A stretch of 64,000 nucleotides of DNA from Polyangiaceae bacterium (GCA_027009115.1 JALVDI010000386.1:6700-70699), one strand, 5' to 3'. Positions 26,895 to 45,449 are shown, numbered from the stretch's first letter. The notes: generated from the letters alone by a model not told the origin. Made by a program: numbers and translations.

Positions 26895-27067
26895 GCTTCC
26901 TCTACCCCTCGCGTTTGGCCACCCACCACCGCCGCAGCTACGCTGGGGGTGTGGCAGGGGCCCTACCCCCCTACGCCGAACCCGTGGCTGGATACCACGT
27001 TGCCGCCTGGCTGACCCCCAGGCCGGATAGGCGCAGGGGCGAACGGGCCCCGCCAACCCTGTAAAGG

Positions 27068-27089
27068 CGGCCCGCCTTGCGGCGGGCCG
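27068..27089. terminator. GC-rich hairpin terminator downstream of gene 27157..27597
   Basis: CGGCCCGCC-ttgc-GGCGGGCCG. On the minus strand it is followed by CCTTTAC. Confidence 0.5.
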
Positions 27090-27101
27090 TTCCGGCTGTG
27101 G

Positions 27102-27136
27102 CCTTACATGGGCTAGGCCTCGGCGTGTAAGGTTTC
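27102..27136. repeat. Conserved hairpin element, copy A (inverted copy B at 39141..39179)
   Basis: ccttacatgggctaggcctcggcgtgtaaggtttc aligns with the reverse complement of 39143-39179 (ccttacacccgcagggcctcggggtgtaaggttcc) at about 28 of 35 positions by my hand alignment. The CCTTACA/TGTAAGG stem and GGCCTCGG loop core are identical. Confidence 0.6.
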
Positions 27137-27156
27137 AGGGGCGATAATCGCCCTTA

Positions 27157-27597
27157 TCAGACCAGGGACACCTCAATCACCGTCCACTCCCCCTCGGCCC
27201 AGGGCCGCTCGGACGCTTCGCGCAACGCCCGCGACTTGGGGCTCTCCCACAGGACCGGCTGCCCTTCGTCGTCAAGCGGGCGGCGGTCCACCACCCAGAT
27301 CGGGGTTCGGCCGTTGCGCAAAAGCGCCAGCGCCACCGAGGACGCGGTCTGCTCCTCGACGGGGCCGATCACCTCGTACCCCTCCCCCTCCTGGCAGCGC
27401 ACCGCGACGTACTGGGCCGGCTCGGCGTCGAAGCCGGGCTCCAGGAGCTCGGAGCAGCCGCTCTCCCAGCGGTACAGGGGGCCGCGGGGGTACTCGAACA
27501 CATGCCTCACCGGCGGGAGCTCGGGGTGAAAGCGAAGGCTCCGGCGCGTGAAAAAGACCCTCCCGCTTATCTTGCGTCTGTCTCGTTTGCCGTCCAC
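27157..27597 (-). CDS. Hypothetical protein (146 aa, GTG start)
   Basis: Best-composed of three overlapping track ORFs. The start codon is GTG (27595-27597), 6 nt after a TAGATT -10 box. Confidence 0.45.
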   Translation of the reverse strand: MDGKRDRRKISGRVFFTRRSLRFHPELPPVRHVFEYPRGPLYRWESGCSELLEPGFDAEPAQYVAVRCQEGEGYEVIGPVEEQTASSVALALLRNGRTPIWVVDRRPLDDEGQPVLWESPKSRALREASERPWAEGEWTVIEVSLV

Positions 27598-27603
27598 GCC
27601 TGC

Positions 27604-27633
27604 AATCTAGCCCAGCGCCTAGGCATCTGTCAA
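27604..27633 (-). promoter_or_regulatory. Leftward promoter of a back-to-back pair
   Basis: The minus strand reads TTGACA (27628-27633), 18 nt, TAGATT (27604-27609). Confidence 0.55.
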
Positions 27634-27639
27634 CCCCCG

Positions 27640-27669
27640 TTGACAAACCGCTGCATCTGTGCGTAGGAT
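27640..27669 (+). promoter_or_regulatory. Rightward promoter of a back-to-back pair (replication operon)
   Basis: TTGACA (27640-27645), 18 nt, TAGGAT (27664-27669), with ATG 27679 only 9 nt after the -10. The two -35 boxes form the palindrome TGTCAA-cccccg-TTGACA. Confidence 0.55.
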
Positions 27670-27678
27670 GGTCTCGCA

Positions 27679-28113
27679 ATGGAGACAAACGTCAAAGCGT
27701 CGGAAAATAGTCGCACTCCAACTGCGGCGATTCGTGTTACCGGGGTCAGACCCGGCCCCGACCTGCAGATGCGCGTCGGCCCACACGCCGGCTTCACCGC
27801 CATCGCACGGCGTGACCTGGGGCGCTACTACGCGCTGCTCGACCACGTGCGCGACGGCATGCGTGGGCGCTTCACCGCCGATGAACTCGACGCGCTCGCG
27901 GACCACCTCACCGCGACGCCCATGTTGGACCTCCCCGAAGCGCTGGCCGTCGTGCCCCACATTCTACTGGAGGCCGCCGAACGCGGCCTGCTCGACGAAG
28001 GCCTAGCCGAGCGGGTGCGGCAACTGACCCACGCGGAGCGCTGGGCGCTCGTGGACGCGGCCGAGGTGGTGTCCTCCGGCACGGCCTCCTGGGCCGATCT
28101 AGGGATGGTCTGA
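27679..28113 (+). CDS. Hypothetical regulator-like protein, paralog of 37522..37983
   Basis: IARRDLGRYYALLDHVRDGMRGRFTADELDALADHL and RVRQLTHAERWALVDAAE align with IARRDLARYYSMLERAMRGLRDRFSVAELEALAYAL and RVRELSLAERYALVDAIG in the other protein. Confidence 0.65.
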   Translation: METNVKASENSRTPTAAIRVTGVRPGPDLQMRVGPHAGFTAIARRDLGRYYALLDHVRDGMRGRFTADELDALADHLTATPMLDLPEALAVVPHILLEAAERGLLDEGLAERVRQLTHAERWALVDAAEVVSSGTASWADLGMV

Positions 28114-28115
28114 TC

Positions 28116-29123
28116 ATGGGCAGCCTCCACGACGGCCGAATCAAAAACTTCTGGTGGGGACCCAACGCCCTGGTAGACGACGGGCATCTCGAGCGCATGG
28201 GTCCCCACGCCGTTTCGGTGTACGTGGCGCTGCTGCGCTACTCGGACAACGACCGCCGCTCGTGGCCCAAGGTCGAAACCCTGGAGCGCCTGACCGGCAT
28301 CTCTCGCGCCCAGGTCTACCGCGCGCTCGCGCGCCTCGAAGAGCTGGGCTACGTATCCCGCGAGCGTGACGGCCGGCGCAACGTCTACCATCTGCTGCAG
28401 CTCCCCACGGCATCCCCCGCCGACCCGCCCGTGAAACAGGTCTCAGGCAGAGACGTTTCCAGCGAAAAGGTCTCAGAGGGAGACCCTTCGGGGGAAAGGG
28501 TCTCAGACAGAGACAAAAAGGGTCTCAGACAGAGACGTGTAAGGTCTCAGACAGAGACGTATGGTGACACCGAGAGCGCGCGTCCTGGACGGGAAAAACT
28601 CCCCCAAAATGCAGGCCGAAGAAAACAAATAGAAAAAGACCTAGGGAAGAAAACAACACAAGAAGAAGAAGAAGAAGAAGCGGCCGCTCACGAAAATCTC
28701 AGAAAGGAACCGCCCCCCTACGCCTCGGTGTTCGCCACCCCGGCCGCGATGAAGGACGCGGTGTTGCATGCGGCGCTGCGCGGTGCCCCCGAGCGCCGCA
28801 TCCGTATGCTGGCGGACCTCGTCGAGGCTGGGGTGTGGGAAAAGTTGCGCGCGCTCGCGCGCGAAAACCGCCGCGGCGCGCGCGCGTGGCACGACTGGCT
28901 CGATCAGCTGTCGCGGCAGCTCGAGGGCCGGCCGGACGGCCTCGAGCGGCTGCGCCAGGCTCTCGAGGCGCTTACCCCGGACATCGAACGCCCCTTTGCG
29001 TGGGTGACGCGGTTCCTGAGCACCGAGGCCCCGACGCCGGCGCCTAAGCGGGCGCCGGCGCGGAACGCAGGCGTAGGCGACGGCGTGGAAGTGGACATGC
29101 GCGGTGTGTACATGGAGGACTGA
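28116..29123 (+). CDS. Replication initiator with N-terminal winged-HTH (lambda O-like organisation)
   Basis: wHTH segment: SWPKVETLERLTGISRAQVYRALARLEELGYVSRERDGRRNVY. The gene contains the iteron array and A/T-rich tract and is followed by a DnaC-like loader. Confidence 0.7.
   Translation: MGSLHDGRIKNFWWGPNALVDDGHLERMGPHAVSVYVALLRYSDNDRRSWPKVETLERLTGISRAQVYRALARLEELGYVSRERDGRRNVYHLLQLPTASPADPPVKQVSGRDVSSEKVSEGDPSGERVSDRDKKGLRQRRVRSQTETYGDTESARPGREKLPQNAGRRKQIEKDLGKKTTQEEEEEEAAAHENLRKEPPPYASVFATPAAMKDAVLHAALRGAPERRIRMLADLVEAGVWEKLRALARENRRGARAWHDWLDQLSRQLEGRPDGLERLRQALEALTPDIERPFAWVTRFLSTEAPTPAPKRAPARNAGVGDGVEVDMRGVYMED
28439..28558 (+). repeat. Five iterons GGTCTCAGACAGAGAC (putative replication origin)
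   Basis: Copies lie at 28439-28454 (GGTCTCAGGCAGAGAC), 28469-28484 (GGTCTCAGAGGGAGAC), 28499-28514, 28521-28536 and 28543-28558 (the last three exact). Spacing is 30, 30, 22 and 22 bp. Each unit is itself a dyad, GTCTC-N5-GAGAC. Confidence 0.8.
28593..28680 (+). other. A/T- and purine-rich tract next to the iterons (candidate DNA-unwinding element), ending in a (GAA)7 run
   Basis: gggaaaaactcccccaaaatgcaggccgaagaaaacaaatagaaaaagacctagggaagaaaacaacacaagaagaagaagaagaagaag is conspicuously AT-rich in a GC-rich genome. It is still in frame within the initiator gene. Confidence 0.6.
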
Positions 29124-29124
29124 C

Positions 29125-29916
29125 ATGGGCGACGCCCCGGAGAAGGATCAGGAGAACCCCTTTCTGGCGCTGGTCGAGGAAATCCGCTCGAAGAACCCGC
29201 CGGCGGCGCGGGTCGAGTCCGACCACGAGTGCTTCGACGGGATGGTCGAGGACGACAAGGGCCGCTGGGTGCCGTGCCCGGTGTGCAAGGCGCGGCGCGA
29301 CGAAGCCATGCTGCGCATGCGCCTCCAGTCGTCGGGGATCGCGGAGCGCTACCTCGACGTGGGCTGGGACGACCTCGAGATGCTGCCGCCCTTCCCGCTG
29401 GTGCGAAGCGTGGCCGAGCGCATCGGCGACCTGATCCACGCCGGCGAGTCCGCGGTGTTTACGGGGCCGGTGGGGACGGGCAAGACCCAGGCCGGGCTGC
29501 TCCTGGTGCGGGCTGCGGTGCGCGCCGGGTTCGAGGCGCGGGTCGTCAACGTCGGCTGGCTGGGGGTTGAGGTGCGCTCCACCTGGAACGGCGGTGAGGG
29601 CATCACGGAAAACGAGGCCGTGCGCCTCATGGCTCAGCCCGACCTGCTGCTGCTCGACGACGTGGGGGCCGGCGAAACCCGCAACGCCGAGCTCGAGCGC
29701 CGCCTCCTCTACCTCGCCCTCGAGGCGCGGAACCAGAACCGGCGCCCGACGATCATCACGACCAACCTCGGGGTTGGGTCAAAATCGGCCTCGCGCGCCA
29801 CATTGGAGCAGTACCTTGGAGGGCGGATATGGGACCGCCTCAAGCCGCTCCGGGTGGTGGCCTTCAAGCACGGGAAAAACTTCAGGGAGCGGGAGATTAG
29901 CGTATGGGCAAACTGA
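29125..29916 (+). CDS. DnaC/IstB-like AAA+ helicase loader
   Basis: Trimmed to MGDAPEK (ATG 29125) behind GGAGGA. Walker A is FTGPVGTGKTQAG, Walker B is LLLLDDVGAGE, followed by RRPTIITTNL. The N-terminal Cys cluster is CFDG...CPVCKARR. Confidence 0.8.
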   Translation: MGDAPEKDQENPFLALVEEIRSKNPPAARVESDHECFDGMVEDDKGRWVPCPVCKARRDEAMLRMRLQSSGIAERYLDVGWDDLEMLPPFPLVRSVAERIGDLIHAGESAVFTGPVGTGKTQAGLLLVRAAVRAGFEARVVNVGWLGVEVRSTWNGGEGITENEAVRLMAQPDLLLLDDVGAGETRNAELERRLLYLALEARNQNRRPTIITTNLGVGSKSASRATLEQYLGGRIWDRLKPLRVVAFKHGKNFREREISVWAN

Positions 29917-31334
29917 GCTATGACGACCTGGTCGATCCGGCCCGCTGGGACGTGGTGGGCTACGAGATCGGCTTGGATGACCTGGGCGAGTTTGAACCCG
30001 ACGACATCGTGCGCAGCCGTCGCGCTCAGCTGCTGATGCGTCAGGAACGTTATGAAGAAGCGCTCCTCGAGCTCGACCGCGTAGAGGGACCTCCGGGATC
30101 GGGGTTGCGCCGGCTGGCGCGGCTGGGCCTTGGGCTCTACGAGCGGGTGCTGCAATCCGAACCCACGCCCGCGGAAACCCTGAACCCCATCGAGCTCGAG
30201 GAGCAGTTCTACTTCGCCTTTGCCCGGGCGGGTGCGGCCAGCCAGCTCGGCAAGCTGGACCTGGCGCTGCAGCACAACGCCGTGGCGGAGTTCATCGCCC
30301 GCACCCTGCGCATGGAGCGCCGTCTCCACGTCGTTCATGCGGACATCCTGCGCATTCGCAACCTGATGGGCGACCCCCAGCCCGAGGAAATGGCCGGACT
30401 CTACGCGATCATGGGGCGCTGGAACCGGCGCCTGAGCCTGTGGGGGCGGCGCACCCTCGTGGAGATGCACCTGGCGCGCGGGGACTACACCAGGGCGCAC
30501 CGTGACGCTCGGGGCGATTCGGCCCTCGAGGCGTTCACCGGCATGCTGGCCTGCGACGGAACCGCGCGCCCCAGCAACGGCGATCACGGGGCCATCGCCA
30601 ACATCGCGCAAAGCGTTCTGGGCGGCCACTACCTGCCCGATGACGTTGCCTCGCAGCCGTACAGCGACTACGCCCGGGTGATCCGCGCCTACGGGCTGCT
30701 GCGCCGGGGGCATCCGACGGCCGCCATGCGCCACCTGGGACCCAAGCCCCCGGGCTTCCCCGACCAGCGCGTCTACTGGGGCGGGGTCGCGCTGCTGGCG
30801 CTGGCGCACGCCGGCAGCAGCGGACTTCCCCCGTTCGACCCCCTGTCCATCGCGGACGTAGTGCACGAGGGCGTGGCGAGGATGATCTCCACCGACGGAG
30901 TGGTGTGCGTGATGCGGCGGTACATGCCCGACGCCCTGGCCGCCCTGGCCGTGCATCCCGAGACCCACCCGCACCTGGCCGGCGGGCTGGCCGAAGTACC
31001 CCTGCTGGTCGGTGGGTGGGTGGAATACCGCGGCGACCGCGTCAAGGTCCCCCCCACCCTTGGCGAGGCTGCGATCTTGCGCGCGCTGGGCGTGTCCAAC
31101 GGCCGCCTGCCTACGGTCCACGCCGCCCAGGAGTCACGCTACCGGTCGTACCTTGGGCGGATGGGGCTGTCCCCGGACGAAGTCGTGAACGTGGGCGTGC
31201 TCTACCGCCTAGCGCGCACCATGGAGGGCATCGCCAACGGCGACAACGTGCGAAGCGCCCGCGCGTGGCGGCGCGTCGCCGAAGAGCTGGCCTCCAAGGC
31301 CCCGGTCTTGCAGTCCTACGACACCGGGCACTAA
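29904..31334 (+). CDS. Hypothetical helical-repeat protein (476 aa)
   Basis: The ATG overlaps the end of the loader gene by 13 nt. Leu/Ala/Arg-rich helical composition. No catalytic motif recognised. Confidence 0.65.
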   Translation: MGKLSYDDLVDPARWDVVGYEIGLDDLGEFEPDDIVRSRRAQLLMRQERYEEALLELDRVEGPPGSGLRRLARLGLGLYERVLQSEPTPAETLNPIELEEQFYFAFARAGAASQLGKLDLALQHNAVAEFIARTLRMERRLHVVHADILRIRNLMGDPQPEEMAGLYAIMGRWNRRLSLWGRRTLVEMHLARGDYTRAHRDARGDSALEAFTGMLACDGTARPSNGDHGAIANIAQSVLGGHYLPDDVASQPYSDYARVIRAYGLLRRGHPTAAMRHLGPKPPGFPDQRVYWGGVALLALAHAGSSGLPPFDPLSIADVVHEGVARMISTDGVVCVMRRYMPDALAALAVHPETHPHLAGGLAEVPLLVGGWVEYRGDRVKVPPTLGEAAILRALGVSNGRLPTVHAAQESRYRSYLGRMGLSPDEVVNVGVLYRLARTMEGIANGDNVRSARAWRRVAEELASKAPVLQSYDTGH

Positions 31335-31343
31335 GGTGCAGGC

Positions 31344-31442
31344 ATGAAAAAGTACAGAAAGTACCTCCCCGCGCTTTTGGTCCTCGGAATCCTGCTTTGG
31401 GCCGCCATCGCCAACGCTGACCCCTGTCCGGGTTGCGTGTAG
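31344..31442 (+). CDS. Possible 32-aa membrane/secreted peptide MKKYRKYLPALLVLGILLWAAIANADPCPGCV
   Basis: My own translation (below the track length cutoff). AAGGTG SD 5 nt upstream. It has a basic N-terminus, a hydrophobic helix, A-x-A and a C-terminal CPGC. Confidence 0.35.
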   Translation: MKKYRKYLPALLVLGILLWAAIANADPCPGCV

Positions 31443-31513
31443 CGCCTCTGGGTGTTAGTCGAGTGTTACCAAAAGCCACCCATTCCCGGTAAGGGGCGCG
31501 GTAAAATCCGAAC

Positions 31514-31705
31514 ATGGCATTGACTATGAAAACACCCACTCAGCAGGAGGCCCGAAACCGGCTCATCAAGGCCACGGAGGGCGACCTGGACAGCGAAATC
31601 GCCGCGTTTTCGATCATCGCCAAAGCCAACGAAATCGGCCAGCTGCTCCAGCAGCTGGCCCCCGAGGCGCGCGAGACCGCGCGCGAGCTTCTAAGAGCCT
31701 TGTAG
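31514..31705 (+). CDS. Hypothetical small protein (63 aa), apparently leaderless
   Basis: TAAAAT (31502-31507) lies 6 nt before ATG 31514 and there is no SD. The 3' end overlaps the convergent RHH gene by 15 nt. Confidence 0.45.
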   Translation: MALTMKTPTQQEARNRLIKATEGDLDSEIAAFSIIAKANEIGQLLQQLAPEARETARELLRAL

Positions 31706-32116
31706 CGTCTTCTGGCCCTTCGGGGCCGCACGCAAGGCCCGATCCAGGGCCGTGAGGATCACGCTGTTCTGCGTGATCTTTTCTTTGCGGGACTGGTTCA
31801 GCCGCTCCACCGTGTCGTGGAGGACCCGGACCAGCTCCACGGGCAGCCGTTGGCTGCGCACCGGGTCGTACGGACGCGGGTTACGCCAGTACCGGGGCAG
31901 CGCGTCCGGGCGGCGCCGCGCCTCCCGCAGGAAGGCGGCGAGCGCGCGCTCAACGTAGCCCTGGATCGTGAGCCCTTCGGCCATGGCCGCGATCTTCAGC
32001 TCCTGGTACATGTCGTCCGGCATTTTGTAGGACACGATCCGCCGCAACTGCTGTTTCGGGCCGACCGGCTTCGCGCTGTGCTCCATCAGCCCCTCGTACT
32101 GGTGTTTGTTGGGCAT
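31691..32116 (-). CDS. Tandem ribbon-helix-helix protein, ParG-like centromere-binding candidate
   Basis: AGGAGGAG SD. There are two RHH-like segments: RIVSYKMPDDMYQELKIAAMAEGLTIQGYVERALAAFL and QRLPVELVRVLHDTVERLNQSRKEKITQNSVILTALDRAL. It lies immediately downstream of parA. Confidence 0.55.
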   Translation of the reverse strand: MPNKHQYEGLMEHSAKPVGPKQQLRRIVSYKMPDDMYQELKIAAMAEGLTIQGYVERALAAFLREARRRPDALPRYWRNPRPYDPVRSQRLPVELVRVLHDTVERLNQSRKEKITQNSVILTALDRALRAAPKGQKTLQGS

Positions 32117-32127
32117 GGCTCCTCCTG

Positions 32128-32925
32128 TTAGCGGCTGGGCACCAGCTCGGCCCGTTCCGCGACCCAGTCCCCCAGCGCCATGTAGTCAATCGCGCCCGGG
32201 GACCGGGGCTTGTACTCGAAGATGGTCAGCCCGCGCTCCGGCGCTTCGGCGAGGTGGACGTTGCGCCGGATGTGACCGGCGTAGGTGGGCCCGTAGGCCT
32301 CCTGCAGGTCGGGCACGAGGTTGCGGGACAGACGTTCGCGTCGGTCGATCATCGTGGCCAGCACGCCCATCAGCGCCGGCGCGTAACCGAGGCGGTCGCG
32401 CATGGCGCGCAGGCGCGTTCGCAGCCCCTCCACCCCGGCCCGGGTGGCCGCACCGGGGGCCACGGGCACGATGACGGCGTCGGCCGCGTAGAGGGCGAGC
32501 AGGCTGGCCAGGTTGACGGTGGGGCCCACGTCTATGATCACGAGCTGGTAGCGGTCGCTGACCTCCTTAAGCCGCTCGGCCAGGATCATGTGCCGGTCTT
32601 CGCGGCCGGCGATCTCGAGCTCGGCTTGGGCGATGCGGGGGTTGTTGGGGATGAGGTCGAGCCCGTCGCGCACGTTCAGGGTGATGAGCTCGTCGGCGGG
32701 GCGGTAGGTCGGGTCGAGCGGGTCCGAAAACACCAGCATCTCGTACATCCCCGCGCGGTCCTCCCCCTCCGTGGTGAACCCCAGGAACATGCCCGCCTGC
32801 CCCTGCGAGTCCATGTCCACGAGCAGCACCTTGCCTACGCGGTCGGCCAGGTAGGCCGCAAGGTTGACCGCGGTGGTGGTCTTCCCCACCCCGCCCTTTT
32901 CAGCAGCGATAGCCAGGACCATCAT
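32128..32925 (-). CDS. parA: ParA/Soj-family partition ATPase
   Basis: Deviant Walker A VLAIAAEKGGVGKTTTAVNLAAYLA, plus VLLVDMDSQG and YQLVIIDVGP. 265 aa. Confidence 0.9.
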   Translation of the reverse strand: MMVLAIAAEKGGVGKTTTAVNLAAYLADRVGKVLLVDMDSQGQAGMFLGFTTEGEDRAGMYEMLVFSDPLDPTYRPADELITLNVRDGLDLIPNNPRIAQAELEIAGREDRHMILAERLKEVSDRYQLVIIDVGPTVNLASLLALYAADAVIVPVAPGAATRAGVEGLRTRLRAMRDRLGYAPALMGVLATMIDRRERLSRNLVPDLQEAYGPTYAGHIRRNVHLAEAPERGLTIFEYKPRSPGAIDYMALGDWVAERAELVPSR

Positions 32926-33563
32926 GACACCCGCTTAGGCCGCACCCACGTCACCACACCAATCACCTTGTCGCTCGGCTTGGGCGGCGGGGCCTCTTCG
33001 TCGTCGTACACGTAGCCGCCCTTGGTGGCCCACACGGCCTCGAGGCCGCTACCCAGCCGCTCGAGCACCACGAGGTCGCCCTCTTCGATCCGCTCGGTCG
33101 CCCGCACCCCCACCGGCTCGTTGAGCGGCAGACAGGCGATCCTGCCCGACGTGGGAACGAAGAGCAGGTCGCAGGGCAGCGCCGGCTCCTCGCGCCGCGC
33201 GGCGGGGCCCTGGGCGGACTCCCCCTCGAGGTAGACGGGCACCGTCACGGCGACCTTGGCCGCCGGTTCGCCGTTGGCGGGCGCCACCACGGCGAGCCCG
33301 GTCTCCTCCACGAACCCCTGGTAGTCCCCGTCCCACAGGAGGGCGACCAGGGTACGCAGCCGGGCCGGCGAGAGGGTGCGCACGGCTACGTCGGGCTGCG
33401 TGATCAGCGTATGCAGCGTCGGGCGCGACACGCGCTCGTAGATACCGGGTTCGCGCTCGGCCAGGTCCTGGCTAAGCGCGTCCACGTCCCGCAGGCTCAG
33501 CTTGCGGGCCTTCATCCGCTGGTGTATCGCGTCCGAAAGAGACTTGGTTTTGACTGCTCCCAC
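32922..33563 (-). CDS. cI-like repressor candidate (N-terminal HTH, C-terminal beta-rich domain)
   Basis: GTG start at 33563. The N-terminus SLSDAIHQRMKARKLSLRDVDALSQ is XRE-type HTH-like. The gene is divergent from a cro-like gene and has an ATGA overlap with parA. The C-terminus (EEGDLVVLERL...VIGVVTWVRPK) is reminiscent of an S24/LexA-like fold, but I could not locate a Ser/Lys dyad. Confidence 0.55.
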   Translation of the reverse strand: MGAVKTKSLSDAIHQRMKARKLSLRDVDALSQDLAEREPGIYERVSRPTLHTLITQPDVAVRTLSPARLRTLVALLWDGDYQGFVEETGLAVVAPANGEPAAKVAVTVPVYLEGESAQGPAARREEPALPCDLLFVPTSGRIACLPLNEPVGVRATERIEEGDLVVLERLGSGLEAVWATKGGYVYDDEEAPPPKPSDKVIGVVTWVRPKRVS

Positions 33564-33613
33564 CTAACTCCACCCCCGTAAATGCGTGTGCCTCTTCCCT
33601 CCGTATAGTGCTT

Positions 33614-33642
33614 ATTGTAGTCCAGAATATTGGATAACGCAA
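33614..33642 (-). promoter_or_regulatory. Promoter of the cI-like/parA/RHH operon
   Basis: The minus strand reads TTGCGT (33637-33642), 17 nt, TACAAT (33614-33619). Confidence 0.55.
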
Positions 33643-33644
33643 AT

Positions 33645-33697
33645 GGACAGACAGCACGGCTGGCCAGCTTGCCCCCTTGTCCGTCTGTCTGTAAAAT
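33645..33697 (+). promoter_or_regulatory. cro-side promoter flanked by inverted ACAGACAG / CTGTCTGT repeats
   Basis: TTGCCC (33669-33674), 17 nt, TAAAAT (33692-33697), with ATG 33705 lying 7 nt after the -10 (leaderless). GGACAGACAG at 33645-33654 and CTGTCTGT at 33685-33692 bracket the -35 box. Confidence 0.55.
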
Positions 33698-33704
33698 GAG
33701 ACAC

Positions 33705-33908
33705 ATGGAGACGATCCGCCTCAGCGAAATCCACACGCGCCTGAGCGAGCTGTCCGGCGAGCAGATCCTCGAGCTCGCTCGCCGAACCGGCATCGGCCGC
33801 TCGACCCTGTACCAGTACCGCGCCAGCCCGGAGGCGCTGAAGCGGGCTCGAGGCTCCACCCTGCTGGCCATCCAGAGGGCCCTGGATGAGGTGCGCGATG
33901 CTGCCTAG
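33705..33908 (+). CDS. Cro-like small HTH protein (67 aa)
   Basis: Trimmed to METIRLSEIHTRLSELSGEQILELARRTGIGRSTLYQYR (HTH). It is divergent from the cI-like gene. Confidence 0.55.
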   Translation: METIRLSEIHTRLSELSGEQILELARRTGIGRSTLYQYRASPEALKRARGSTLLAIQRALDEVRDAA

Positions 33909-34551
33909 GGACCTGGACCCGTGGGGCGAGTGGCGCAACCCGGGCCTGAACCCCGACGTGGCCGAGTTCCTGGTGACCCACCGACCCACCTACGCGCAGT
34001 CGGTGGGTTTCATCCGAGCGGAGCGGCCGCGCGAGAACAATCATGAGGCCACCGCGTGGTGGAGCACCACCCCTGCCCGCGCGCACCTCATCAACGCGCT
34101 GCTGCGCCGGGGCGATCGCACCGTCGAGGCGGTCGAGCGGGAGCTGGGCATCCCCTCGTCCAAGATTTACTACTACCTGCGCGAGTTCCGCATGGCCTTC
34201 CAGCCCCGTCCGGGCTCGTCGGTGGTCATCATCGGCTACAGGGGCGAGTTCTACGAGGGGTGGGTGCTCAAGGACTACGGGAACGGCCGGGCGCGCCTGG
34301 TCGTGCCCGAGCACGGGGCGGTGGTCGAGGGCGAATGGAGCCGCACCAACCAGGCGTTCCGTTTGTCGCAGCCGTTACCGCGCACGGTGCCGCTTCGTGC
34401 CGCGGCGGAAAGCATGGGCGTCAAGGACTCCACGCTGCGCAAAGCCCTCAAGGCGCTGGGGGTGCCGGTCTACCAGCGGGCCCCTGTGCCGCTGCTCCAG
34501 CGCATGCTGCCTGAGCGAGCCCGCTACCTGGGAGGGCTATGGGGGAGCTAA
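33898..34551 (+). CDS. Hypothetical DNA-binding protein (two HTH-like segments)
   Basis: ATG 33898 behind GAGGTG. HTH-like segments: RTVEAVERELGIPSSKIYYYLREF and AAESMGVKDSTLRKALKALGV. Confidence 0.55.
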   Translation: MLPRDLDPWGEWRNPGLNPDVAEFLVTHRPTYAQSVGFIRAERPRENNHEATAWWSTTPARAHLINALLRRGDRTVEAVERELGIPSSKIYYYLREFRMAFQPRPGSSVVIIGYRGEFYEGWVLKDYGNGRARLVVPEHGAVVEGEWSRTNQAFRLSQPLPRTVPLRAAAESMGVKDSTLRKALKALGVPVYQRAPVPLLQRMLPERARYLGGLWGS

Positions 34552-34754
34552 TCGCGCTCATCGAGCGGCTGGATCTGGCCAATGGGCTGCCCTACCTGCT
34601 GGCGGCGCGCGCCGGTGAGCTAGATAACCCGCCGTTGATCTGGCTCCTGTGGGAAGTGGAGGGCCTGGTCGAGGGGTCCAAGCTCACCGCGAAGGGTGAG
34701 AAGGTGGTGCACCACCTTCTCGGGCTGGCCGATGCCCTGGACATAGCCATCTGA
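34539..34754 (+). CDS. Hypothetical protein (71 aa)
   Basis: Overlaps the upstream gene by 13 nt. Ordinary composition. Confidence 0.5.
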   Translation: MGELIALIERLDLANGLPYLLAARAGELDNPPLIWLLWEVEGLVEGSKLTAKGEKVVHHLLGLADALDIAI

Positions 34755-34781
34755 GACGGACAAGCAAGCAAGGGAGACTGC

Positions 34782-35252
34782 ATGTACATTCAACGGGACA
34801 GACGCACCGGGGAGCTGGGGCTCGTCCTGTGCGCTGCGGTGCTGGTGCTCACCCGCTACCGCTACGGGGGCGAGTATTGGCACATGGACATGAACGGCCT
34901 CGGCCTCGCGGCGCTTTGGCGGGCGCGGGAGCTGGAGCAGGCCGGCTACTACGTGCACCTCCGCCCAACCCGCACGGTGGTGCCCTCGCGCTGGCTGCTC
35001 GTAGCCCAGCTGCTGCTGGCGGCTTGGGTCGAGCGCGTCAGCGACCGAATCGGCCGGTGGGCAGAGGCCATATGGCACCGCAGCTGGAAGCACCACGTCC
35101 GGGCCGGCCGGCAGCTGGCACGCCGGGTCGCCTCGAGGTTGTGGCGGCGCGTGCGTGCGGCGGCCGGGGTGGCGCTTGGAGAACGACTCGAGCGCGCGGC
35201 GCCGAAACCGCGGGCATGGCCGCGGTACCGGAAGCCCTGGAAGCGGTGGTAG
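34782..35252 (+). CDS. Hypothetical protein, probably membrane-associated (156 aa)
   Basis: AAGGGAGA SD. It has hydrophobic segments (LGLVLCAAVLVLT, WLLVAQLLLAAWV) and a basic Trp/Arg-rich tail. Confidence 0.45.
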   Translation: MYIQRDRRTGELGLVLCAAVLVLTRYRYGGEYWHMDMNGLGLAALWRARELEQAGYYVHLRPTRTVVPSRWLLVAQLLLAAWVERVSDRIGRWAEAIWHRSWKHHVRAGRQLARRVASRLWRRVRAAAGVALGERLERAAPKPRAWPRYRKPWKRW

Positions 35253-35275
35253 GGAAGAGGGACAGGCAAGCCAGC

Positions 35276-35305
35276 TTGACGGCTTTGTCAGCCGTCCGGT
35301 ATCCT
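35276..35305 (+). promoter_or_regulatory. Candidate promoter upstream of 35333
   Basis: GGACAGGCAAGCCAGC-TTGACG (35276-35281), 18 nt, TATCCT (35300-35305). The spacer ends in CAGCCGTCCGG, like other promoters here. Confidence 0.4.
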
Positions 35306-35332
35306 AGACACGCAAGGCGAGGAGGTTAAGCC

Positions 35333-35587
35333 ATGAAGACACCCGAAGCAGTTCTCCAGCACGCACCCGCCGCCGCTCACGGCGCCGCGTCGGCGGCCGT
35401 GACGCTCTTGCCGGCTGACGGCTGGCGCGCCGTCTATGAAGGCGGGGACGCGCGACCGTTGGTAGCTTGGCGCTTCGTCGGAGACCGCGGCGAGGGCATC
35501 GTGCTCAACGAAGCGGGGGAGACGGTAGCGGCCCCGATGCTCCCGGGGTTCAAACGCTACCTGTACGTCCAGCGGAGGAGCGCATGA
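35333..35587 (+). CDS. Hypothetical protein (84 aa)
   Basis: GAGGAGG SD. ATGA overlap with dnaN. Confidence 0.5.
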   Translation: MKTPEAVLQHAPAAAHGAASAAVTLLPADGWRAVYEGGDARPLVAWRFVGDRGEGIVLNEAGETVAAPMLPGFKRYLYVQRRSA

Positions 35588-36654
35588 AGTTCGCCCAGGC
35601 CGTCTCACTCCTGGCGGGCCTCGTGCCTACCCGCGCCAGCAACCCGGCGCTGGGCCACATCCACCTCGATACCAAAGACGGGGTGCTCGTCGGCCGCGCG
35701 TCCAACGGGGAAGTGGACCTCGAAATCATGACGACGGAGGCGGCCCTCGAGCTGGATCCGGGCGGGGTGCTGGTGCCCCCGGCGGGGTTTGCGCGGTTTG
35801 TCGCTAGCCTGAAAGAACCTGCGCTGGGATACGACCCCGAGACGCGCGAGCTGGTCGTCAGCGGCGGCGCAGCCTCGGCCCGTTTCCGCACCGGCCGCGC
35901 CGACGACTTCCCCGAGATGCGCGCCTTTGGGGGCGAGGTTCCGCGCGTGCGCATCCCTGCCGGCGAGCTTCGCCGGGCGCTGTCCGTGCGCTTCGCAAGC
36001 TCGGCCGAAGACTACCGCGCGATCTTCCGCGGGGTGCAGTTCGAGTTCCGCGAGAAAGGCTTCCGCACCGCGGCCTCGGACGGGTTCCGCCTCGCGGTCT
36101 ACGACTTCCCCGAAAGCGAGGGCGAGGTCGAACGCCTGTTCGTCATCGCCCGAAAGTCGCTCGACGTGCTGAGCAAGCTCCTTCCCGGGGACGAGTCGCC
36201 CGTAGAGGTGGCCGTCCAAGGCCCGCAGGTGCAGTTCGTGTGGGAAGGCGTGCGCCTGGTCCTCACGGCCATGGAGGGGCAGTTTCCCGACTACGAGCGG
36301 GTCGTGCCCAAGGAGATCACCCACACCATCGAAGCGCCGCGTGACGACCTCCTGACCGCGCTCAAGCGGCTGGCGCCGCTCACGGACCCGAACACGGCCC
36401 GGGTGGACGTGCGGTTCGAGGACGGGGCCGCCACACTCACCGCCGAGGGCGACTACGGTAAGGCCAACGACCGGGTGGAGCTCCTGGCGGTCCAGGGCGA
36501 ACCCGTCCTGCAGTCGTACAACCTGCATTACCTGCAGGAGGCGCTGCAGCACGTGGACACCGATCGTGCCACCCTCGAGCTCAGCGGTCCCGTGACCCCT
36601 GCGGTCATCCGCGGAGAAAGCACCTGGAGCATCGTGGTACCGCTGCGAACCTAG
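35584..36654 (+). CDS. dnaN: DNA polymerase III beta sliding clamp homolog
   Basis: Trimmed to MKFAQAVSLLAGLVPTRASNPALGHIHLDTKDGVLVGRASNGEVDLE. The 356-aa length and the internal ...FRTAASDGFRLAV... and ...FPDYERVVP... motifs are typical of DnaN. Confidence 0.8.
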   Translation: MKFAQAVSLLAGLVPTRASNPALGHIHLDTKDGVLVGRASNGEVDLEIMTTEAALELDPGGVLVPPAGFARFVASLKEPALGYDPETRELVVSGGAASARFRTGRADDFPEMRAFGGEVPRVRIPAGELRRALSVRFASSAEDYRAIFRGVQFEFREKGFRTAASDGFRLAVYDFPESEGEVERLFVIARKSLDVLSKLLPGDESPVEVAVQGPQVQFVWEGVRLVLTAMEGQFPDYERVVPKEITHTIEAPRDDLLTALKRLAPLTDPNTARVDVRFEDGAATLTAEGDYGKANDRVELLAVQGEPVLQSYNLHYLQEALQHVDTDRATLELSGPVTPAVIRGESTWSIVVPLRT

Positions 36655-36684
36655 CGGTTAACCGGCCGTCCTACCCTCCTAGGG

Positions 36685-36724
36685 CGGTACCCCCGCGGTT
36701 CCTACCGTGGGGGTACCGTTTGTT
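36685..36724 (+). terminator. Intrinsic terminator after dnaN
   Basis: CGGTACCCCC (36685-36694), 14-nt loop, GGGGGTACCG (36709-36718), followed by TTTGTT. Confidence 0.6.
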
Positions 36725-36790
36725 ACCGCTACCCATGTACCGCTCGAGGCCGGAAAAACTCCCACGGTATCGACGCGTACGGTAGGTGCG

Positions 36791-37525
36791 ATGGGTGACC
36801 GTTCCGACGACTACATCCAGCTCCCCAACGGCGGGCGGGCGCTGCGCTGCAAGGCCACCCTCAAGAACGGCAAGCGCTGCTCCAACCCGGCCCGCAAGGG
36901 CTTCGAGGTCTGCTGGAAGCACGGCGCCGGATCGGGCAAGCGCGAAAAGGAGGGCACGCGTAAGCCCCCGGGCCGGCCGCCCGTGCATGGCCTCTACTCC
37001 AAGCACGGGCTCACCTCGATCCGGGAGCTGCGGGATCAGCTGCTCGAGCTCGGGGGAGAGCTCGACAACACCGACGCGGCGCTGGCCACCCTCAAGGCCA
37101 CCCTCGAGTGGCTGCTCAGCCTCGCGGACAACCAGAAGGACAAGGCGGAGAAGTTCGAGAAGCTGGCCGATACGCTCGCCGCGGCGGCCTCGGAGGCGAG
37201 GTCGTACGGCGACGTGGAAACGGCCGTCGAGCTGGGTCGGGACGTGCGCGCGGCCCTGCGGCTCGCCACCGAGCTGTCGTCCTGGACGGACCGCCTCGTC
37301 GAGGCCGCCCTCAAGGTGATCAACGCGGTCAAGCAGCGCGCCGAAACCCGGGCCAAGCTGGCCGAAACCAGGGCGCTCGAGCAGTTCGTCAAGCTGGCCG
37401 CGGGCGTCCGCGACATCGTTTGGGACCTGATGGACGAGGAAACCCTGAACGTCTTCGAGGACCGCTTGCGCCGGGAGCTGCTGGCCCCGAAGCGCCTGCA
37501 GCTCCCGGAACGCACGCAGGACTAG
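36791..37525 (+). CDS. Hypothetical protein with Cys-rich HGGxSTG-like N-terminus and coiled-coil C-terminus
   Basis: Trimmed to MGDRSDDY (ATG 36791), because the track start at 36707 lies inside the dnaN terminator. The motif is RCKATLKNGKRCSNPARKGFEVCWKHGAGSGKR. Confidence 0.55.
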   Translation: MGDRSDDYIQLPNGGRALRCKATLKNGKRCSNPARKGFEVCWKHGAGSGKREKEGTRKPPGRPPVHGLYSKHGLTSIRELRDQLLELGGELDNTDAALATLKATLEWLLSLADNQKDKAEKFEKLADTLAAAASEARSYGDVETAVELGRDVRAALRLATELSSWTDRLVEAALKVINAVKQRAETRAKLAETRALEQFVKLAAGVRDIVWDLMDEETLNVFEDRLRRELLAPKRLQLPERTQD

Positions 37526-37983
37526 CTCGAGCGCAGACCCAAACCGACCCAGCCCTCCTCGCCGCGTTGGTCACGCGGGAGCTCCAGGTACTGGCCGATC
37601 GCGTCCACCAGCGCGTAGCGCTCCGCCAGGCTCAGCTCCCGGACCCGCCGCAGCAGGCCCTCGCAGTCGTCCAGTCCGGCCTGCTCGCACAGGCGCTCGT
37701 GCTGCTCGGCCTCCTCGACCGTCGCCGGCACTAGGTAGATCAGCTCGGGAGCCTCCACGGACGCCATCGAGCTGAGGGCGTACGCCAGCGCCTCGAGCTC
37801 AGCAACGGAGAAGCGGTCGCGCAACCCGCGCATGGCGCGCTCGAGCATGGAGTAGTAGCGCGCGAGGTCGCGGCGCGCGATCTCAGTCGGGGTGGCGGAG
37901 CGCGCCCGCTGGACCAGGTCGGCCCCCGGACGCACGTCCGGGCTCAGCGACGTGTTAACCCGCAAGGCGTTTTTCATGGGCAT
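37522..37983 (-). CDS. Hypothetical regulator-like protein, paralog of 27679..28113
   Basis: See the paralog alignment under 27679..28113. GGAGGTG SD. The N-terminal ALRVNTSLSPDV could be an RHH beta-strand. Confidence 0.65.
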   Translation of the reverse strand: MPMKNALRVNTSLSPDVRPGADLVQRARSATPTEIARRDLARYYSMLERAMRGLRDRFSVAELEALAYALSSMASVEAPELIYLVPATVEEAEQHERLCEQAGLDDCEGLLRRVRELSLAERYALVDAIGQYLELPRDQRGEEGWVGLGLRSS

Positions 37984-38001
37984 TTCAGCACCTCCGCCGC
38001 C

Positions 38002-38031
38002 ATCCTAGCACGGTACGCGGACCGCGCGCAA
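38002..38031 (-). promoter_or_regulatory. Leftward promoter of second back-to-back pair
   Basis: The minus strand reads TTGCGC (38026-38031), 18 nt, TAGGAT (38002-38007). The spacer contains GCACGGTACGCG (38009-38020). Confidence 0.55.
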
Positions 38032-38036
38032 TAGGA

Positions 38037-38065
38037 TTGCAAGGGTACGCGTACCGTGCTACAAT
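38037..38065 (+). promoter_or_regulatory. Rightward near-consensus promoter of second back-to-back pair
   Basis: TTGCAA (38037-38042), 17 nt, TACAAT (38060-38065). The spacer contains the 12-bp palindrome GGTACGCGTACC (38044-38055) and CGCGTACCGTGC (38048-38059), which is the inverted partner of 38009-38020. Confidence 0.65.
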
Positions 38066-38085
38066 ACGGGTGTGGGAGGTATGCG

Positions 38086-38760
38086 ATGAAGAAAGCGGAA
38101 ATGAGCGCGAAACTGTTGGCGGCCCTGAGCGAGCTCGGTGACTCCTTGGCCCCGCTGCACGTGATGCTTGGCAACGAGCTCGAGCCCCGCCCGGCCTACC
38201 TGTTCCTCGGCGAGGACGAGGTGGGGTTCCGGGTGGCGTACTCCGACGGTACGCCGGAGGCCGTCTGGAACGGCCGCGTCCGTGAGTGGTCGCTCCACCC
38301 GCGGCTCTCCGCGGACGCCCTGCGCCGGTTGGCCGAAGACGACCGCGTGCTGTCCCTGCTCGAGCGCGTGGCGGCCGGCCTCAGCGTGGAGTGGGACGGC
38401 AGCAACCGCGTGGGCCGCCTCTCGCCCGACGCCGCGGCCGCCGAGGAGGAGCTGGGCGACCTGCTCGAGCGCGAGTACGGGCTCGACGGCGACCTGGTGC
38501 CGTCCTACGACGCCGATGAGGTTGTCTGGGGCGTGAACGTGCCGTCGCGCGAAAAGCTCGCTGAGGTCTGGCCCCCGGAAAAATCCCTCGACGAGGCCGT
38601 GAGTGCGCTGGAAGAGCTGGCCCGGTCTGAGGGCTTTCTCGTCCGCGGCGACCTCGAGCGGGTGCTCCTGGACGCCCTGGAATCGCTGGGCGACGAAGAC
38701 CCCGACGCCCTCACGGGCGAGCACCGGCGGGAGTACGAAGCGCGCTTCGCCGCGGCCTGA
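38086..38760 (+). CDS. Highly acidic hypothetical protein (224 aa)
   Basis: Trimmed to MKKAEMSAKLL (ATG 38086) behind GGGAGG. Asp/Glu-rich throughout (for example DAAAAEEELGDLLEREYGLDGDLVPSYDADE). Confidence 0.6.
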   Translation: MKKAEMSAKLLAALSELGDSLAPLHVMLGNELEPRPAYLFLGEDEVGFRVAYSDGTPEAVWNGRVREWSLHPRLSADALRRLAEDDRVLSLLERVAAGLSVEWDGSNRVGRLSPDAAAAEEELGDLLEREYGLDGDLVPSYDADEVVWGVNVPSREKLAEVWPPEKSLDEAVSALEELARSEGFLVRGDLERVLLDALESLGDEDPDALTGEHRREYEARFAAA

Positions 38761-38778
38761 TCCGGTCTCGACTCCTCA

Positions 38779-38804
38779 AAGGCCGCCCTGGGAAGGGCGG
38801 CCTT
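38779..38804. terminator. Hairpin terminator after 38086..38760
   Basis: AAGGCCGCCC-tgggaa-GGGCGGCCTT, a perfect 10-bp stem. Confidence 0.6.
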
Positions 38805-38894
38805 GCTCATGGGCCCGCCACCGGGACGGCTTTGTGCGCGTGTGGGGCGCAGCTTCCATTGTTCACCGGCCTTTACTAAAATCTATATCGGTAC

Positions 38895-39077
38895 TCAAAA
38901 ATGTATCAAAAGCCAAAATACAAGAAGAGCAATCGTAAGGAAAATCAGACCCGTAAGCCCTGTCCAGACCGCCACCCTGGCCTCTTCGAGCGCGTGTCGC
39001 TCCTGCTGCAGATAGCGCGCCTGGTGGTGGCCCTCCTGCAACTCCTGCTGCGCTGATGGTCTGGTGTTACAGACCAC
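38895..39077 (-). CDS. Possible small tail-anchored membrane peptide (60 aa from GTG, or 26 aa from internal GTG)
   Basis: C-terminal TM segment TGLTGLIFLTIALLVFWLLIHF, encoded in an unusually AT-rich patch. An alternative GTG (VAVWTGL...) lies behind GAGG. No strong SD at the long start. Confidence 0.3.
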   Translation of the reverse strand: MVCNTRPSAQQELQEGHHQARYLQQERHALEEARVAVWTGLTGLIFLTIALLVFWLLIHF

Positions 39078-39105
39078 GCAGCAAGCATGTTGGCTGGACC
39101 GTCTA

Positions 39106-39137
39106 ATATTCCCGCTAATAGAAATAAACGGGAATAT
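39106..39137. repeat. Inverted repeat ATATTCCCG / CGGGAATAT with A/T-rich 14-nt spacer
   Basis: Arms at 39106-39114 and 39129-39137. It lies in the noncoding region upstream of the RuvC-like/terminase genes. Confidence 0.5.
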
Positions 39138-39140
39138 CCC

Positions 39141-39179
39141 GGAACCTTACACCCCGAGGCCCTGCGGGTGTAAGGTTCC
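39141..39179. repeat. Conserved hairpin element, copy B (14-bp perfect stem)
   Basis: GGAACCTTACACCC (39141-39154), 11-nt loop, GGGTGTAAGGTTCC (39166-39179). Its reverse complement matches copy A at 27102-27136. Confidence 0.6.
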
Positions 39180-39235
39180 CGCCCTGGGCGTCCCGGGCGG
39201 CCGCTTCTGACCGCCCCCGCGCCTAGCGTGGGGGT

Positions 39236-45060: not shown

Positions 45061-45449
45061 TACCTACCCCCCAGGCGTGCGAAGGCGCGGAACACGTAGG
45101 TGCCTGCGGGGCGGTACTGGGCCTCGAGCCCCAGCGTCACGCGGGGGCCGTCCGCTAGGGCCTGCACCCCCACCCAGGAGCGCTCGAGCGCGCCCGGGTA
45201 GAAGGCTAGCTGGGGCATGAGGTAGGCGTCCACGTCCCAGCTCGAGCCCAGCCAGTAGTAGGCGTCCAGGCGCACGTAGTGGCCCGAGAACGGTGCGCGG
45301 TCGGCTGAGGGCTCCGTCGCGGCCGGCGCGGGGCCGCTCCACTCCCAACCGAGCTCCACGTCCCAGCCGGTCCAGCCGGTGCCGCCGGCGCCGGTGGCGA
45401 AGGCGAGTCCGGCGGCCAGCACCAGGGGAGCGATAAGGTGCTTTATCAT
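45060..45449 (-). CDS. Secreted beta-rich protein with signal peptide (outer-membrane-protein-like moron)
   Basis: Trimmed to MIKHLIAPLVLAAGLAFATGAGG (ATG 45447-45449). The mature part is rich in Trp/Tyr/Gly and ends ...YVFRAFARLGGR. It has its own TAGAAT box (45457-45462) 7 nt before the ATG and no SD. Confidence 0.55.
   Translation of the reverse strand: MIKHLIAPLVLAAGLAFATGAGGTGWTGWDVELGWEWSGPAPAATEPSADRAPFSGHYVRLDAYYWLGSSWDVDAYLMPQLAFYPGALERSWVGVQALADGPRVTLGLEAQYRPAGTYVFRAFARLGGR

Follow-up and report, generated by a model that had tools for sequence, protein, structure and literature searches.

The stretch of DNA analyzed here, a 64,000-nucleotide window from an assembly labeled Polyangiaceae bacterium (GCA_027009115.1, JALVDI010000386.1:6700-70699), carries a short hairpin of conserved sequence at each border of the early region of a phage. 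C386, a contig of 79,030 bp and the longest of the 702 in the assembly, contains the window as its bases 6700-70699. C386 is collinear from end to end, at ~78% nucleotide identity, with the phage IMGVR_UViG_3300026531_000001 (80,753 bp), its closest relative and hereafter "the relative"; the two ends of that record overlap by 127 nt, as is typical of circular assemblies. Because of this collinearity from first to last base with a terminally overlapping record, we consider C386 to be a nearly complete phage genome, circular, ~79 kb in size, of the Lalka type, and ~60 bp short. Its terminase shares 72% identity with the terminases of the Thermus phages Lalka8, Lalka27a, and Lalka27b, further terminase relatives occur in Deinococcus, Meiothermus, and Calidithermus genomes, and ~40 predicted proteins have counterparts in Lalka8, among them DarB-like and Ulx-like proteins, a large virion helicase, and portal, capsid, sheath, and baseplate proteins. 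We classify the phage as Deinococcus-Thermus-type on the terminase relatives, and its binning with a Polyangiaceae assembly is thus probably erroneous. A further contig, WIAK01000224.1 of GCA_015520015.1, is 97% identical to C386 over the 20 kb examined.

The Lalka-type Thermus phages are a newly described group, for which a recent transcription map shows many late promoters and few terminators. BLASTP revealed no counterpart of the Lalka integrase or of TnpB/Cas12r in C386. The C386 phage carries a ParA gene (Pfam AAA_31, E = 3e-37), a gene for a small partner protein at 31691-32116, and a cI-like gene at 32922-33563. Lalka8 carries an integrase, has no copy of the hairpin, and yielded no ParA homologue (BLASTP, E <= 1e-4). 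Homologues of the ParA partner were found only in the two hairpin-bearing phage lineages among 5.8 billion proteins.

The features at the two borders of the early region are as follows (window coordinates, with the exception of the third hairpin copy):

27066-27091, no strand assigned: canonical G+C-rich hairpin with a 9-bp core stem (27068-27089), two flanking pairs, and a tetraloop, 11 nt beyond copy A
27098-27136, plus strand: hairpin copy A, core 27102-27132 (CCTTACATGGGCTAGGCCTCGGCGTGTAAGG), with GGCCTCGG on the plus strand; 56.1 bits, E = 2.8e-13 (covariance model R1)
27143-27158, no strand assigned: GATAA-TCGCCC-TTATC palindrome, separated from copy A by 6-8 nt and overlapped by the TGA stop codon of the 146-residue gene
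27157-27597, minus strand: gene for a 146-residue protein, leftward outward unit, leaderless behind TTGACA-N18-TAGATT (27633-27604)
27604-27669, no strand assigned: left pair of back-to-back sigma-A-type promoters, the rightward one leading to regulator paralog 1 (27679-28113), then to the O-like initiator and the origin
38002-38065, no strand assigned: right pair of back-to-back promoters, leading leftward to regulator paralog 2 (37983-37522) and rightward to the gene for a 224-residue acidic protein (38086-38760)
38779-38804, plus strand: canonical terminator with an 11-bp stem, directly after the 224-residue gene and 340 nt before copy B
38901-39056, plus strand: 51-codon open reading frame (ORF) with a basic N-terminus and a hydrophobic tail, in an A+T-rich islet
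39123-39138, no strand assigned: degenerate palindrome AATAA-ACGGGA-ATATC (8 of 10 specified positions), 4 nt from copy B, overlapping CGGGA-ata-TCCCG
39141-39179, minus strand: hairpin copy B, core 39145-39175 (CCTTACACCCCGAGGCCCTGCGGGTGTAAGG), inverted, with GGCCTCGG on the minus strand; 57.2 bits (model R1)
39179-39200, plus strand: second G+C-rich hairpin, directly after copy B, with the late promoter 10 nt further on
39210-39238, plus strand: late-type leaderless promoter of the RuvC-like/TerL operon, ACCG-N10-TAGCGT-N6-ATG
C386:936-974, orientation of copy A: third hairpin copy (copy C), outside the window and 5.7 kb to its left

The early region has mirror symmetry: in each of its two back-to-back pairs of sigma-A-type promoters, one side is headed by one of two regulator-like paralogs (42% identical, E = 3e-25). 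Copies A and B lie in mirror orientation at the outer edges of this early and replication module, so that by position the outward transcripts in both directions would carry the same hairpin. Beyond copy A, we found a 3D-domain gene followed by the portal and MuF-like minor-head genes, and beyond copy B the RuvC-like gene and a gpA-type TerL gene. This arrangement had been noticed in a preliminary description of the window, which placed the copies at the same positions and aligned copy A with the reverse complement of copy B by hand at 28 of 35 positions. Recomputation returned the same count (29 of 39 with flanks), as well as the 14-bp perfect stem that had been reported for copy B. The observation is thereby confirmed, and it turned out to be larger than first described, as a third copy in the same phage and two copies in the relative belong to the same family.

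All five copies align without gaps over 39 columns and read CCTTACA, then seven variable positions, then GGCCTCGG(C/G)GTGTAAGGT. In the window, the motif CCTTACA-N9/10-GGCCTCGG(C/G)GTGTAAGGT is found at 27102-27132 and, inverted, at 39145-39175. The hairpin has A+T-rich arms, CCTTACA and TGTAAGG, and GGCCTCGG(C/G)G forms the fixed 3' half of its loop. Of the 25 positions in the arms and the 3' loop half, 24 are the same in all five copies, compared to one of seven in the 5' loop half (Fisher p = 5e-5); the conservation of the two loop halves alone differs at p = 0.009. The flanks of the copies are unrelated to each other. The 97% identical strain has the same sequence as C386 in copies A and B and differs from it at nearby intergenic bases, which is weak evidence given that only ~2 substitutions were expected.

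The copies differ in the extent of pairing. Copy A has a 7-bp perfect stem and a 17-nt loop, with G.U pairs lengthening the stem on the plus strand, while the 14-bp stem of copy B encloses an 11-nt loop, and in copy C flanking complementarity lengthens the stem to 16 bp. The extension of the stems of copies B and C by their own flanks suggests that base pairing itself is under selection. The regions of 91-101 nt around copies A and B, neighboring hairpins included, fold better than shuffled sequences (z = -3.3 to -4.5). The preliminary description had proposed covariation of the hairpin among related phages as a check; across the five copies, we found none in the 7-bp core arms. The changes in the arms consist of left-arm A-to-G and C-to-T substitutions, which keep G.T pairing on the strand carrying GGCCTCGG, and two transversions. 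This gives a hint, resting on two or three events, that the folded strand is the one antisense to the neighboring genes.

The element is restricted to one phage lineage. The pattern CCTTACA-N8-30-TGTAAGG occurs twice in the window (0.00 matches in 100 dinucleotide shuffles) and three times in the whole 5.4-Mb assembly, each time on C386. In 150 related genomes, only chance stems lacking the loop sequence were found. A 23-nt pattern was found in viral and metagenome collections only in the relative and in none of 185,579 species genomes. A covariance model of the five copies detected no diverged copies in the C386 phage, the relative, Lalka8, or seven other terminase-related contigs; a single 21-bit match in Lalka8 is a G+C-rich coding hairpin inside a gene. 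One contig, retrieved via the paralogous regulator, is unrelated and has no hairpins. As the element is carried by two lineages, the C386 phage and the relative, comparisons between them have low power.

Within this lineage, the position of the hairpin is not conserved. The relative keeps both regulator paralogs, a diverged version of the 146-residue gene, the 224-residue gene, the RuvC-like gene, the initiator, and ParA with its partner. However, the family hairpin is absent from the positions of copies A, B, and C in the relative, and likewise from the two positions of the relative in C386. The five copies thus occupy five non-orthologous intergenic sites in two collinear genomes that are 78% identical, and the expectation that the pair would be conserved in relatives did not hold, as the two genomes share no site. 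Three of the five orthologous slots are occupied by another hairpin in the genome that lacks the family copy: the slot of copy C by a weak unrelated one, the slot of copy B by a different one that lies upstream of the RuvC-like gene, and, in C386, the slot of the first copy of the relative by the G+C-rich hairpin CCCCCGCGGGCCTTACCCGCGGGGG. Where C386 has copy A, four tRNA genes are found in the relative on the opposite strand, with a bidirectional terminator after them. We detected neither clean insertion edges nor target-site duplications; the junctions differ between the two genomes as whole intergenic stretches.

The tRNA cluster of the relative (Ser, Ala, Ser, Met; 33980-34470 of its reverse-complemented sequence) lies between the 3D-domain gene and the 146-residue-type gene. 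In C386, ~100 nt within window positions 26900-27060 are homologous to the spacer between two of these tRNA genes, which points to a recent loss or gain of the cluster. The C386 phage itself has no tRNA gene at this place, and no relation of the hairpin to a tRNA or tmRNA was found in the window.

Despite this turnover, all five copies are located at borders between units that differ in promoter type or temporal class. Copy A begins 24 nt past the stop codon of the 146-residue gene, for whose product no match was found in Pfam, PHROG, or PDB; PDB sequence searches with this protein, regulator paralog 2, and the RuvC-like protein gave nothing useful. The G+C-rich hairpin at 27066-27091 is likely the real, bidirectional terminator of the leftward unit, and ~200 nt past it follows the sigma-A-type leaderless promoter of the 3D-domain gene, which leads to the portal and MuF genes. 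On the right side, the early unit probably ends at the terminator at 38779-38804. Next come, in this order, the A+T-rich islet with the 51-codon ORF, a 9-bp inverted repeat, the degenerate palindrome, copy B, the second G+C-rich hairpin, and the late promoter. Copy B is located 88 nt past the stop of the 51-codon ORF and 550 nt upstream of TerL; 31 nt separate it from the downstream late promoter that serves the RuvC-like/TerL operon. The ORF exists in a longer version in the relative, and a 51-residue gene is called in the 97% strain. Copy C lies 20 nt past the stop of a late tail-region gene and ~45 nt ahead of a sigma-A-like leaderless promoter (TTGCGG-N17-TATAGT, motif by eye) of a DNA-methyltransferase-like gene that interrupts the late genes. 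In the relative, one copy is preceded by an upstream gene with its canonical terminator and followed by the late promoter for the protease/capsid operon; the other lies 10 nt past the terminase stop, beside a canonical terminator at the junction with a converging operon. Both have the orientation of copy A when the genome is read parallel to C386. The orientation relative to genes is identical in the four copies with same-strand neighbors, for which the sense transcript reads CCUUACAC-CCGAGGCC.

The 9-bp inverted repeat in the A+T-rich islet before the terminase region (ATATTCCCG-N14-CGGGAATAT, window 39106-39137) has a similar counterpart in the relative, AAAATCCCG-N14-CGGGATTTT, which there sits upstream of the small basic ORF. 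It is a candidate packaging or regulatory site.

All three hairpins of C386 lie 4-8 nt from a palindrome of the type GATAA-N6-TTATC, which is degenerate at copy B. The preliminary description had listed AT-cored palindromes at 27139-27153 and 39129-39141, and both are present, although the one next to copy A is better read as the GATAA-N6-TTATC palindrome at 27143-27158. This motif, often extended to gcGATAA, has exactly five copies in C386 (window 928-943, 12400-12415, 27143-27158, and 45432-45447, and C386:980-995). Five copies are present at orthologous positions in the relative, and Lalka8 has five of the form GATAA-N5/6-TTATC, compared to 0.0-0.1 in shuffled sequences. The palindrome at 928 is located beside the gene for an Xer/Cre-like recombinase (1013-1972) and reads GCGCGATAA-TGTCTA-TTATCGC, which we take to resemble the inner part or core of bacterial dif sites; the one at 45432 overlaps the initial codons of a leaderless gene preceded by TAGAAT. 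The family may be a dispersed operator set, as in P1, or a set of Xer-type sites. Since the palindromes are ancestral and the hairpins are not, we infer that the hairpins were probably copied in beside the palindromes, perhaps with the shared GGCGATAA as an anchor. Copies A and C have 46 nt in common at 89% identity, flank included, because the palindrome abuts both at near-equal spacing.

The late genes of the phage have promoters of their own. Late promoters of Lalka-type phages are defined by ACCG at -26 to -23 and TA(G/A)GGT at -12 to -7, followed by a start codon 6-7 nt later. With the pattern ACCG-N10-TA(G/A)GGT-N6/7-ATG/GTG, we identified 15 late-type leaderless promoters, those within the window having -10 hexamers that start at 1001, 3118, 10766, 25726, 31332, 49549, 50300, and 59383. 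When scored with a position weight matrix (PWM) of the upstream region, 14 of the 15 training promoters reached 8.9-17.5, and the 15th scored -8.7; the pattern match at 3092 is likely a false member of the set. The RuvC-like/TerL promoter (-10 at 39224) was found separately, and its PWM score of 11.1 is within the late range. The late promoter of Lalka27a has the motif TAGGGT with a conserved C at -25 (10.64898/2026.04.20.719267). By their sequence, the late promoters of C386 match this motif and extend it to a member of the group that lacks the integrase and Cas12r. The hairpin itself was considered as a late promoter, with the invariant TAAGGT of its 3' arm as the -10 element, and rejected, since its copies score -11.7 to +1.2 and no start codon follows.

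The copy number of the hairpin, its lineage restriction, its sequence constraint, its orientation, its position at unit borders, and the lack of positional conservation can be read directly from the genomes. Strict sequence, apparently selected pairing, and placement at borders of temporal classes are explained jointly, and for this reason best, by a folded insulator that is read by a factor. We therefore tentatively favor, at somewhat less than even odds, that the hairpin is a sequence-specifically recognized folded element which insulates neighboring units and has spread by copy-and-paste. Stated more broadly, the element is most likely a movable boundary or insulator element and not a lambda-style antitermination site. 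The proposed element would be a phage-lineage-specific cis element of 31-39 nt at the junctions of units of different temporal class. It would act single-stranded and folded, most simply as RNA at the 3' end of an incoming transcript, with the fixed loop and arm sequence being read by a phage or host factor. Together with the adjacent G+C-rich terminators, it might serve as an accessory insulator or 3'-end element that caps the incoming transcript or isolates the units from one another. Copies would spread within the genome through short-patch copying, with intergenic slots already occupied by terminators as the targets, and they would be gained and lost quickly. We thus infer the action as RNA, the insulating effect, and the recognizing factor from the observed properties.

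The preliminary description had also offered a terminator pair insulating the late operons, and copies A and B fit this half of its reading, as each lies downstream of an outward unit and upstream of late genes. The hairpins do not resemble the terminators of this phage. Like intrinsic terminators, they occupy intergenic positions shortly 3' of genes at the borders of units, and they are interchangeable with unrelated hairpins at the same slots in a relative. Unlike them, they have the stem core CCUUACA and tails such as CCACAG, UUCCCG, and UUUCGG, and it is their sequence that is conserved, not structure alone. A scan for consensus terminators does not call any of the family hairpins.

Several observations weigh against a folded insulator acting at the end of transcripts. 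The ordinary terminators of the phage have G+C-rich stems of 9-12 bp and loops of 4-5 nt, whereas the family hairpins have A+T-rich stems, loops of 11-17 nt, and a U tract on neither strand. Three of the five have no more than marginal stability at 65 °C (-2 to -7 kcal/mol). A separate G+C-rich hairpin is present within ~60 nt of four of the five copies, and within 20 nt of three (copy A and both copies of the relative); termination itself therefore may not need the family hairpins. The order is not constant either, as the hairpin precedes the canonical terminator at copy A and follows it at both copies of the relative. Moreover, the G.T wobbles (alignment columns 4 and 12) pair on the strand carrying GGCCTCGG, which is antisense to the flanking genes, and A+T-rich arms of fixed sequence in a 70% G+C genome resemble a protein-binding DNA site as much as an RNA stem.

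This last resemblance leads to the main rival explanation, in which a phage protein binds the element as duplex DNA. The site could be, for example, a dispersed centromere of ParA and a ribbon-helix-helix (RHH) partner, like the four sopC-like sites scattered over the N15 genome, or an operator of the dispersed kind. The hairpin potential would then be a by-product of dyad symmetry, and the position in the genome would carry little weight. We consider this a possible explanation with perhaps one chance in four. The arms look like half-sites and show no covariation in the 7-bp core, copy number and position vary between the relatives, and the nearby GATAA-N6-TTATC-type palindromes are themselves protein-site-like. 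In addition, ParA and its partner are present in both hairpin-bearing phages and BLASTP found no ParA homologue in the hairpin-free, integrase-bearing Lalka8, a correlation that amounts to two lineages versus one. The phage-plasmid N15 has dispersed centromere sites and P1 has dispersed C1 operators; the C386 phage resembles them as a temperate phage with plasmid-type maintenance genes and a few dyad-symmetric sites scattered in its genome. It differs in the asymmetric conservation and long spacer of its putative site and in a partner protein that is not a helix-turn-helix (HTH) ParB. The fixation of one half of the spacer (p = 0.009) is unexpected of a symmetric dimer site, a spacer of 15-17 bp between arms of 7-10 bp is unusual, and the copy-specific stem extensions of copies B and C would not be anticipated. 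Furthermore, known RHH-type centromeres are arrays of short repeats beside the par operon, and no related motif was found at the par promoter of this phage.

A selfish or neutral miniature palindrome is a less probable explanation, and we regard it as unlikely. Here, an element similar to repetitive extragenic palindromic (REP) sequences or to miniature inverted-repeat transposable elements (MITEs) would have been copied into intergenic DNA, its fixed sequence being needed by a mobilizing enzyme or a copying mechanism and bringing no benefit to the phage. Strong sequence constraint without positional constraint, seen in the five non-orthologous sites, is what such an element would leave, as is the 46-nt identity of copies A and C with part of the flank. 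Repeated short palindromes have been reported from some mycobacteriophage clusters, and like these and the REP sequences or bacterial interspersed mosaic elements (BIMEs), the C386 hairpins are intergenic palindromes of ~35 nt, often in 3' untranslated positions, which form sequence families with variable positions. In contrast to REP and BIME sequences, there are two to three copies per genome in a single phage lineage and none in bacterial genomes. No HUH, REP-associated tyrosine transposase (RAYT), or transposase domain was detected in a Pfam scan of ~40 proteins, about half of the proteome. The lack of target-site duplications and of clean insertion edges and the absence of copies from every host-type genome searched also speak against mobility of this kind, and all five copies lie at temporal-class borders rather than in random intergenic DNA.

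A more specific version of the insulator proposal combines these elements. The hairpin might be a regulated "plug-in" insulator, that is, a mobile cis element with a binding site for a phage factor, copied by recombination next to the Xer/dif-like GATAA-N6-TTATC sites or into other terminator slots, which would make the borders between temporal classes switchable. The insulator would be tight in the plasmid-prophage state and open during lytic growth, or the reverse. We view this version as rather improbable, slightly more so than the selfish palindrome.

The analogy to antitermination sites that the preliminary description had drawn is poorly supported. In lambda and HK022, the RNA hairpins nutL/nutR and putL/putR are placed symmetrically on the leftward and rightward early transcripts. 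An equivalent site in the C386 phage would load an antitermination activity on polymerase leaving the early region in both directions. The likeness extends to a hairpin of fixed sequence in the same orientation on both outward transcripts, with a fixed loop as expected of an RNA contacting a protein or the polymerase. Copy A, moreover, comes after the first leftward gene and before a strong terminator, much as nutR lies between cro and tR1, and copy B precedes a G+C-rich hairpin. However, the order of hairpin upstream of terminator on an outward transcript, which holds by position for copies A and B, is reversed in both copies of the relative, where the hairpin comes after the terminator. The relative shares the early region with the same regulators and has no copy at either border, copy C is located in a late region, and the rightward early unit has a terminator of its own 340 nt before copy B. 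There is also no boxA-like partner, the flanks of the five copies sharing nothing but the hairpin and, in three, the GATAA palindrome. The family hairpin is a single stem-loop of 31-39 nt with an 11-17-nt loop, which differs from the 15-nt boxB of lambda and from the two adjacent stem-loops (~70 nt) of the HK022 put sites. Finally, the late genes are served by their own promoters of the ACCG-N10-TAGGGT type, and the RuvC-like/TerL operon just beyond copy B has its own late-type promoter. From RNA-seq of the cultured relative Lalka27a, the authors of that study concluded that phages of this group do not depend on antitermination (10.64898/2026.04.20.719267). We thus consider a nut/put-like function very unlikely.

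The same low probability applies to a replication-polar DNA element, such as a fork barrier or a strand-specific signal, with copies placed in symmetry around the lambda-like origin (28440-28680). This origin is flanked by copies A and B in inverted orientation, and copy C and one copy of the relative are found on the left arm, oriented like copy A. The other copy of the relative is to the right of the origin of that genome in the "left-arm" orientation, so that four of five copies fit, but orientation is fully confounded with gene direction, and no Tus- or RTP-like protein was seen. The 14-nt sequence CGTGTAAGGTCTCA at window 28536-28549, which lies within the spacer separating two origin iterons, recurs exactly as the 3' end and flank of one of the hairpins of the relative. 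This identity is probably due to chance, because the origin of the relative itself lacks CGTGTAAGGTCTCA.

A pac or cos signal for the gpA-type terminase, suggested previously by the location of copy B upstream of TerL, is rejected, given that there are three copies per genome and none conserved beside the terminase gene of the relative or upstream of its terminase genes, that cultured relatives assemble as circles, from which their authors infer terminally redundant, headful-type genomes, and that the C386 contig breaks inside a gene and not at a hairpin.

A number of further identities were tried and discarded. A genome-wide REP-like repeat does not agree with copies being confined to the phage contig and absent from the 150 relatives and the genome collection. 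Rfam gave no match at the gathering score and only noise at E < 5. The collections contain no CRISPR array with this repeat, which is also unlike the 29-nt repeat of Lalka, so that a solitary repeat or an RNA anti-CRISPR was dismissed. As a site of the Xer/Cre-like recombinase, 10-bp arms with a 15-nt spacer misfit the core of tyrosine recombinases, and recombination between direct copies would delete 33-43 kb. The R''/R' boxes of integron attC sites (RYYYAAC...GTTRRRY), which form the base of a folded strand 3' of every cassette gene, are matched by ACCTTAC/GTAAGGT at six of seven positions by eye, but the neighbors include conserved structural genes and there is no cassette array.

Overall, the interpretation given in the preliminary description is partly supported, and whichever reading holds, the lambda nut analogy should stay out of the annotation. 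If the hairpin is a recognized insulator, it would provide a compact, thermostable, and portable part for controlling read-through in Thermus, and it would illustrate how operon borders of phages are rebuilt in the course of mosaic evolution. The switchable plug-in version would amount to a portable factor-dependent terminator/antiterminator module, which has not been described for phages, whereas a centromere or a selfish palindrome would be a small addition to known kinds. In any case, this branch of the Lalka phages combines plasmid-type maintenance genes with a border hairpin that is fixed in sequence and shifts its place between close relatives.

In the course of this study, we made additional observations on the phage genome. 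Accessory genes at window positions 439-819, 2306-3106, and 23300-23878 match the Pfam families cREC_REC (cyclic-phosphate-processing receiver domain), RelA/SpoT, and inorganic pyrophosphatase (InPase), which hints at nucleotide-signal or RNA-end chemistry carried by the phage. ARAGORN called two overlapping tmRNA-like genes at 3584-4398 of locus L138 (C386:70700-79030), on the tail-sheath side; with their implausible lengths and tags, these are probably false positives. An exact 26-nt repeat, GCCCCCACCGTAGCGGCGGGGGCGGT, is found at window positions 16025-16050 and 60419-60444 and represents a second short dispersed hairpin-like repeat in this genome.

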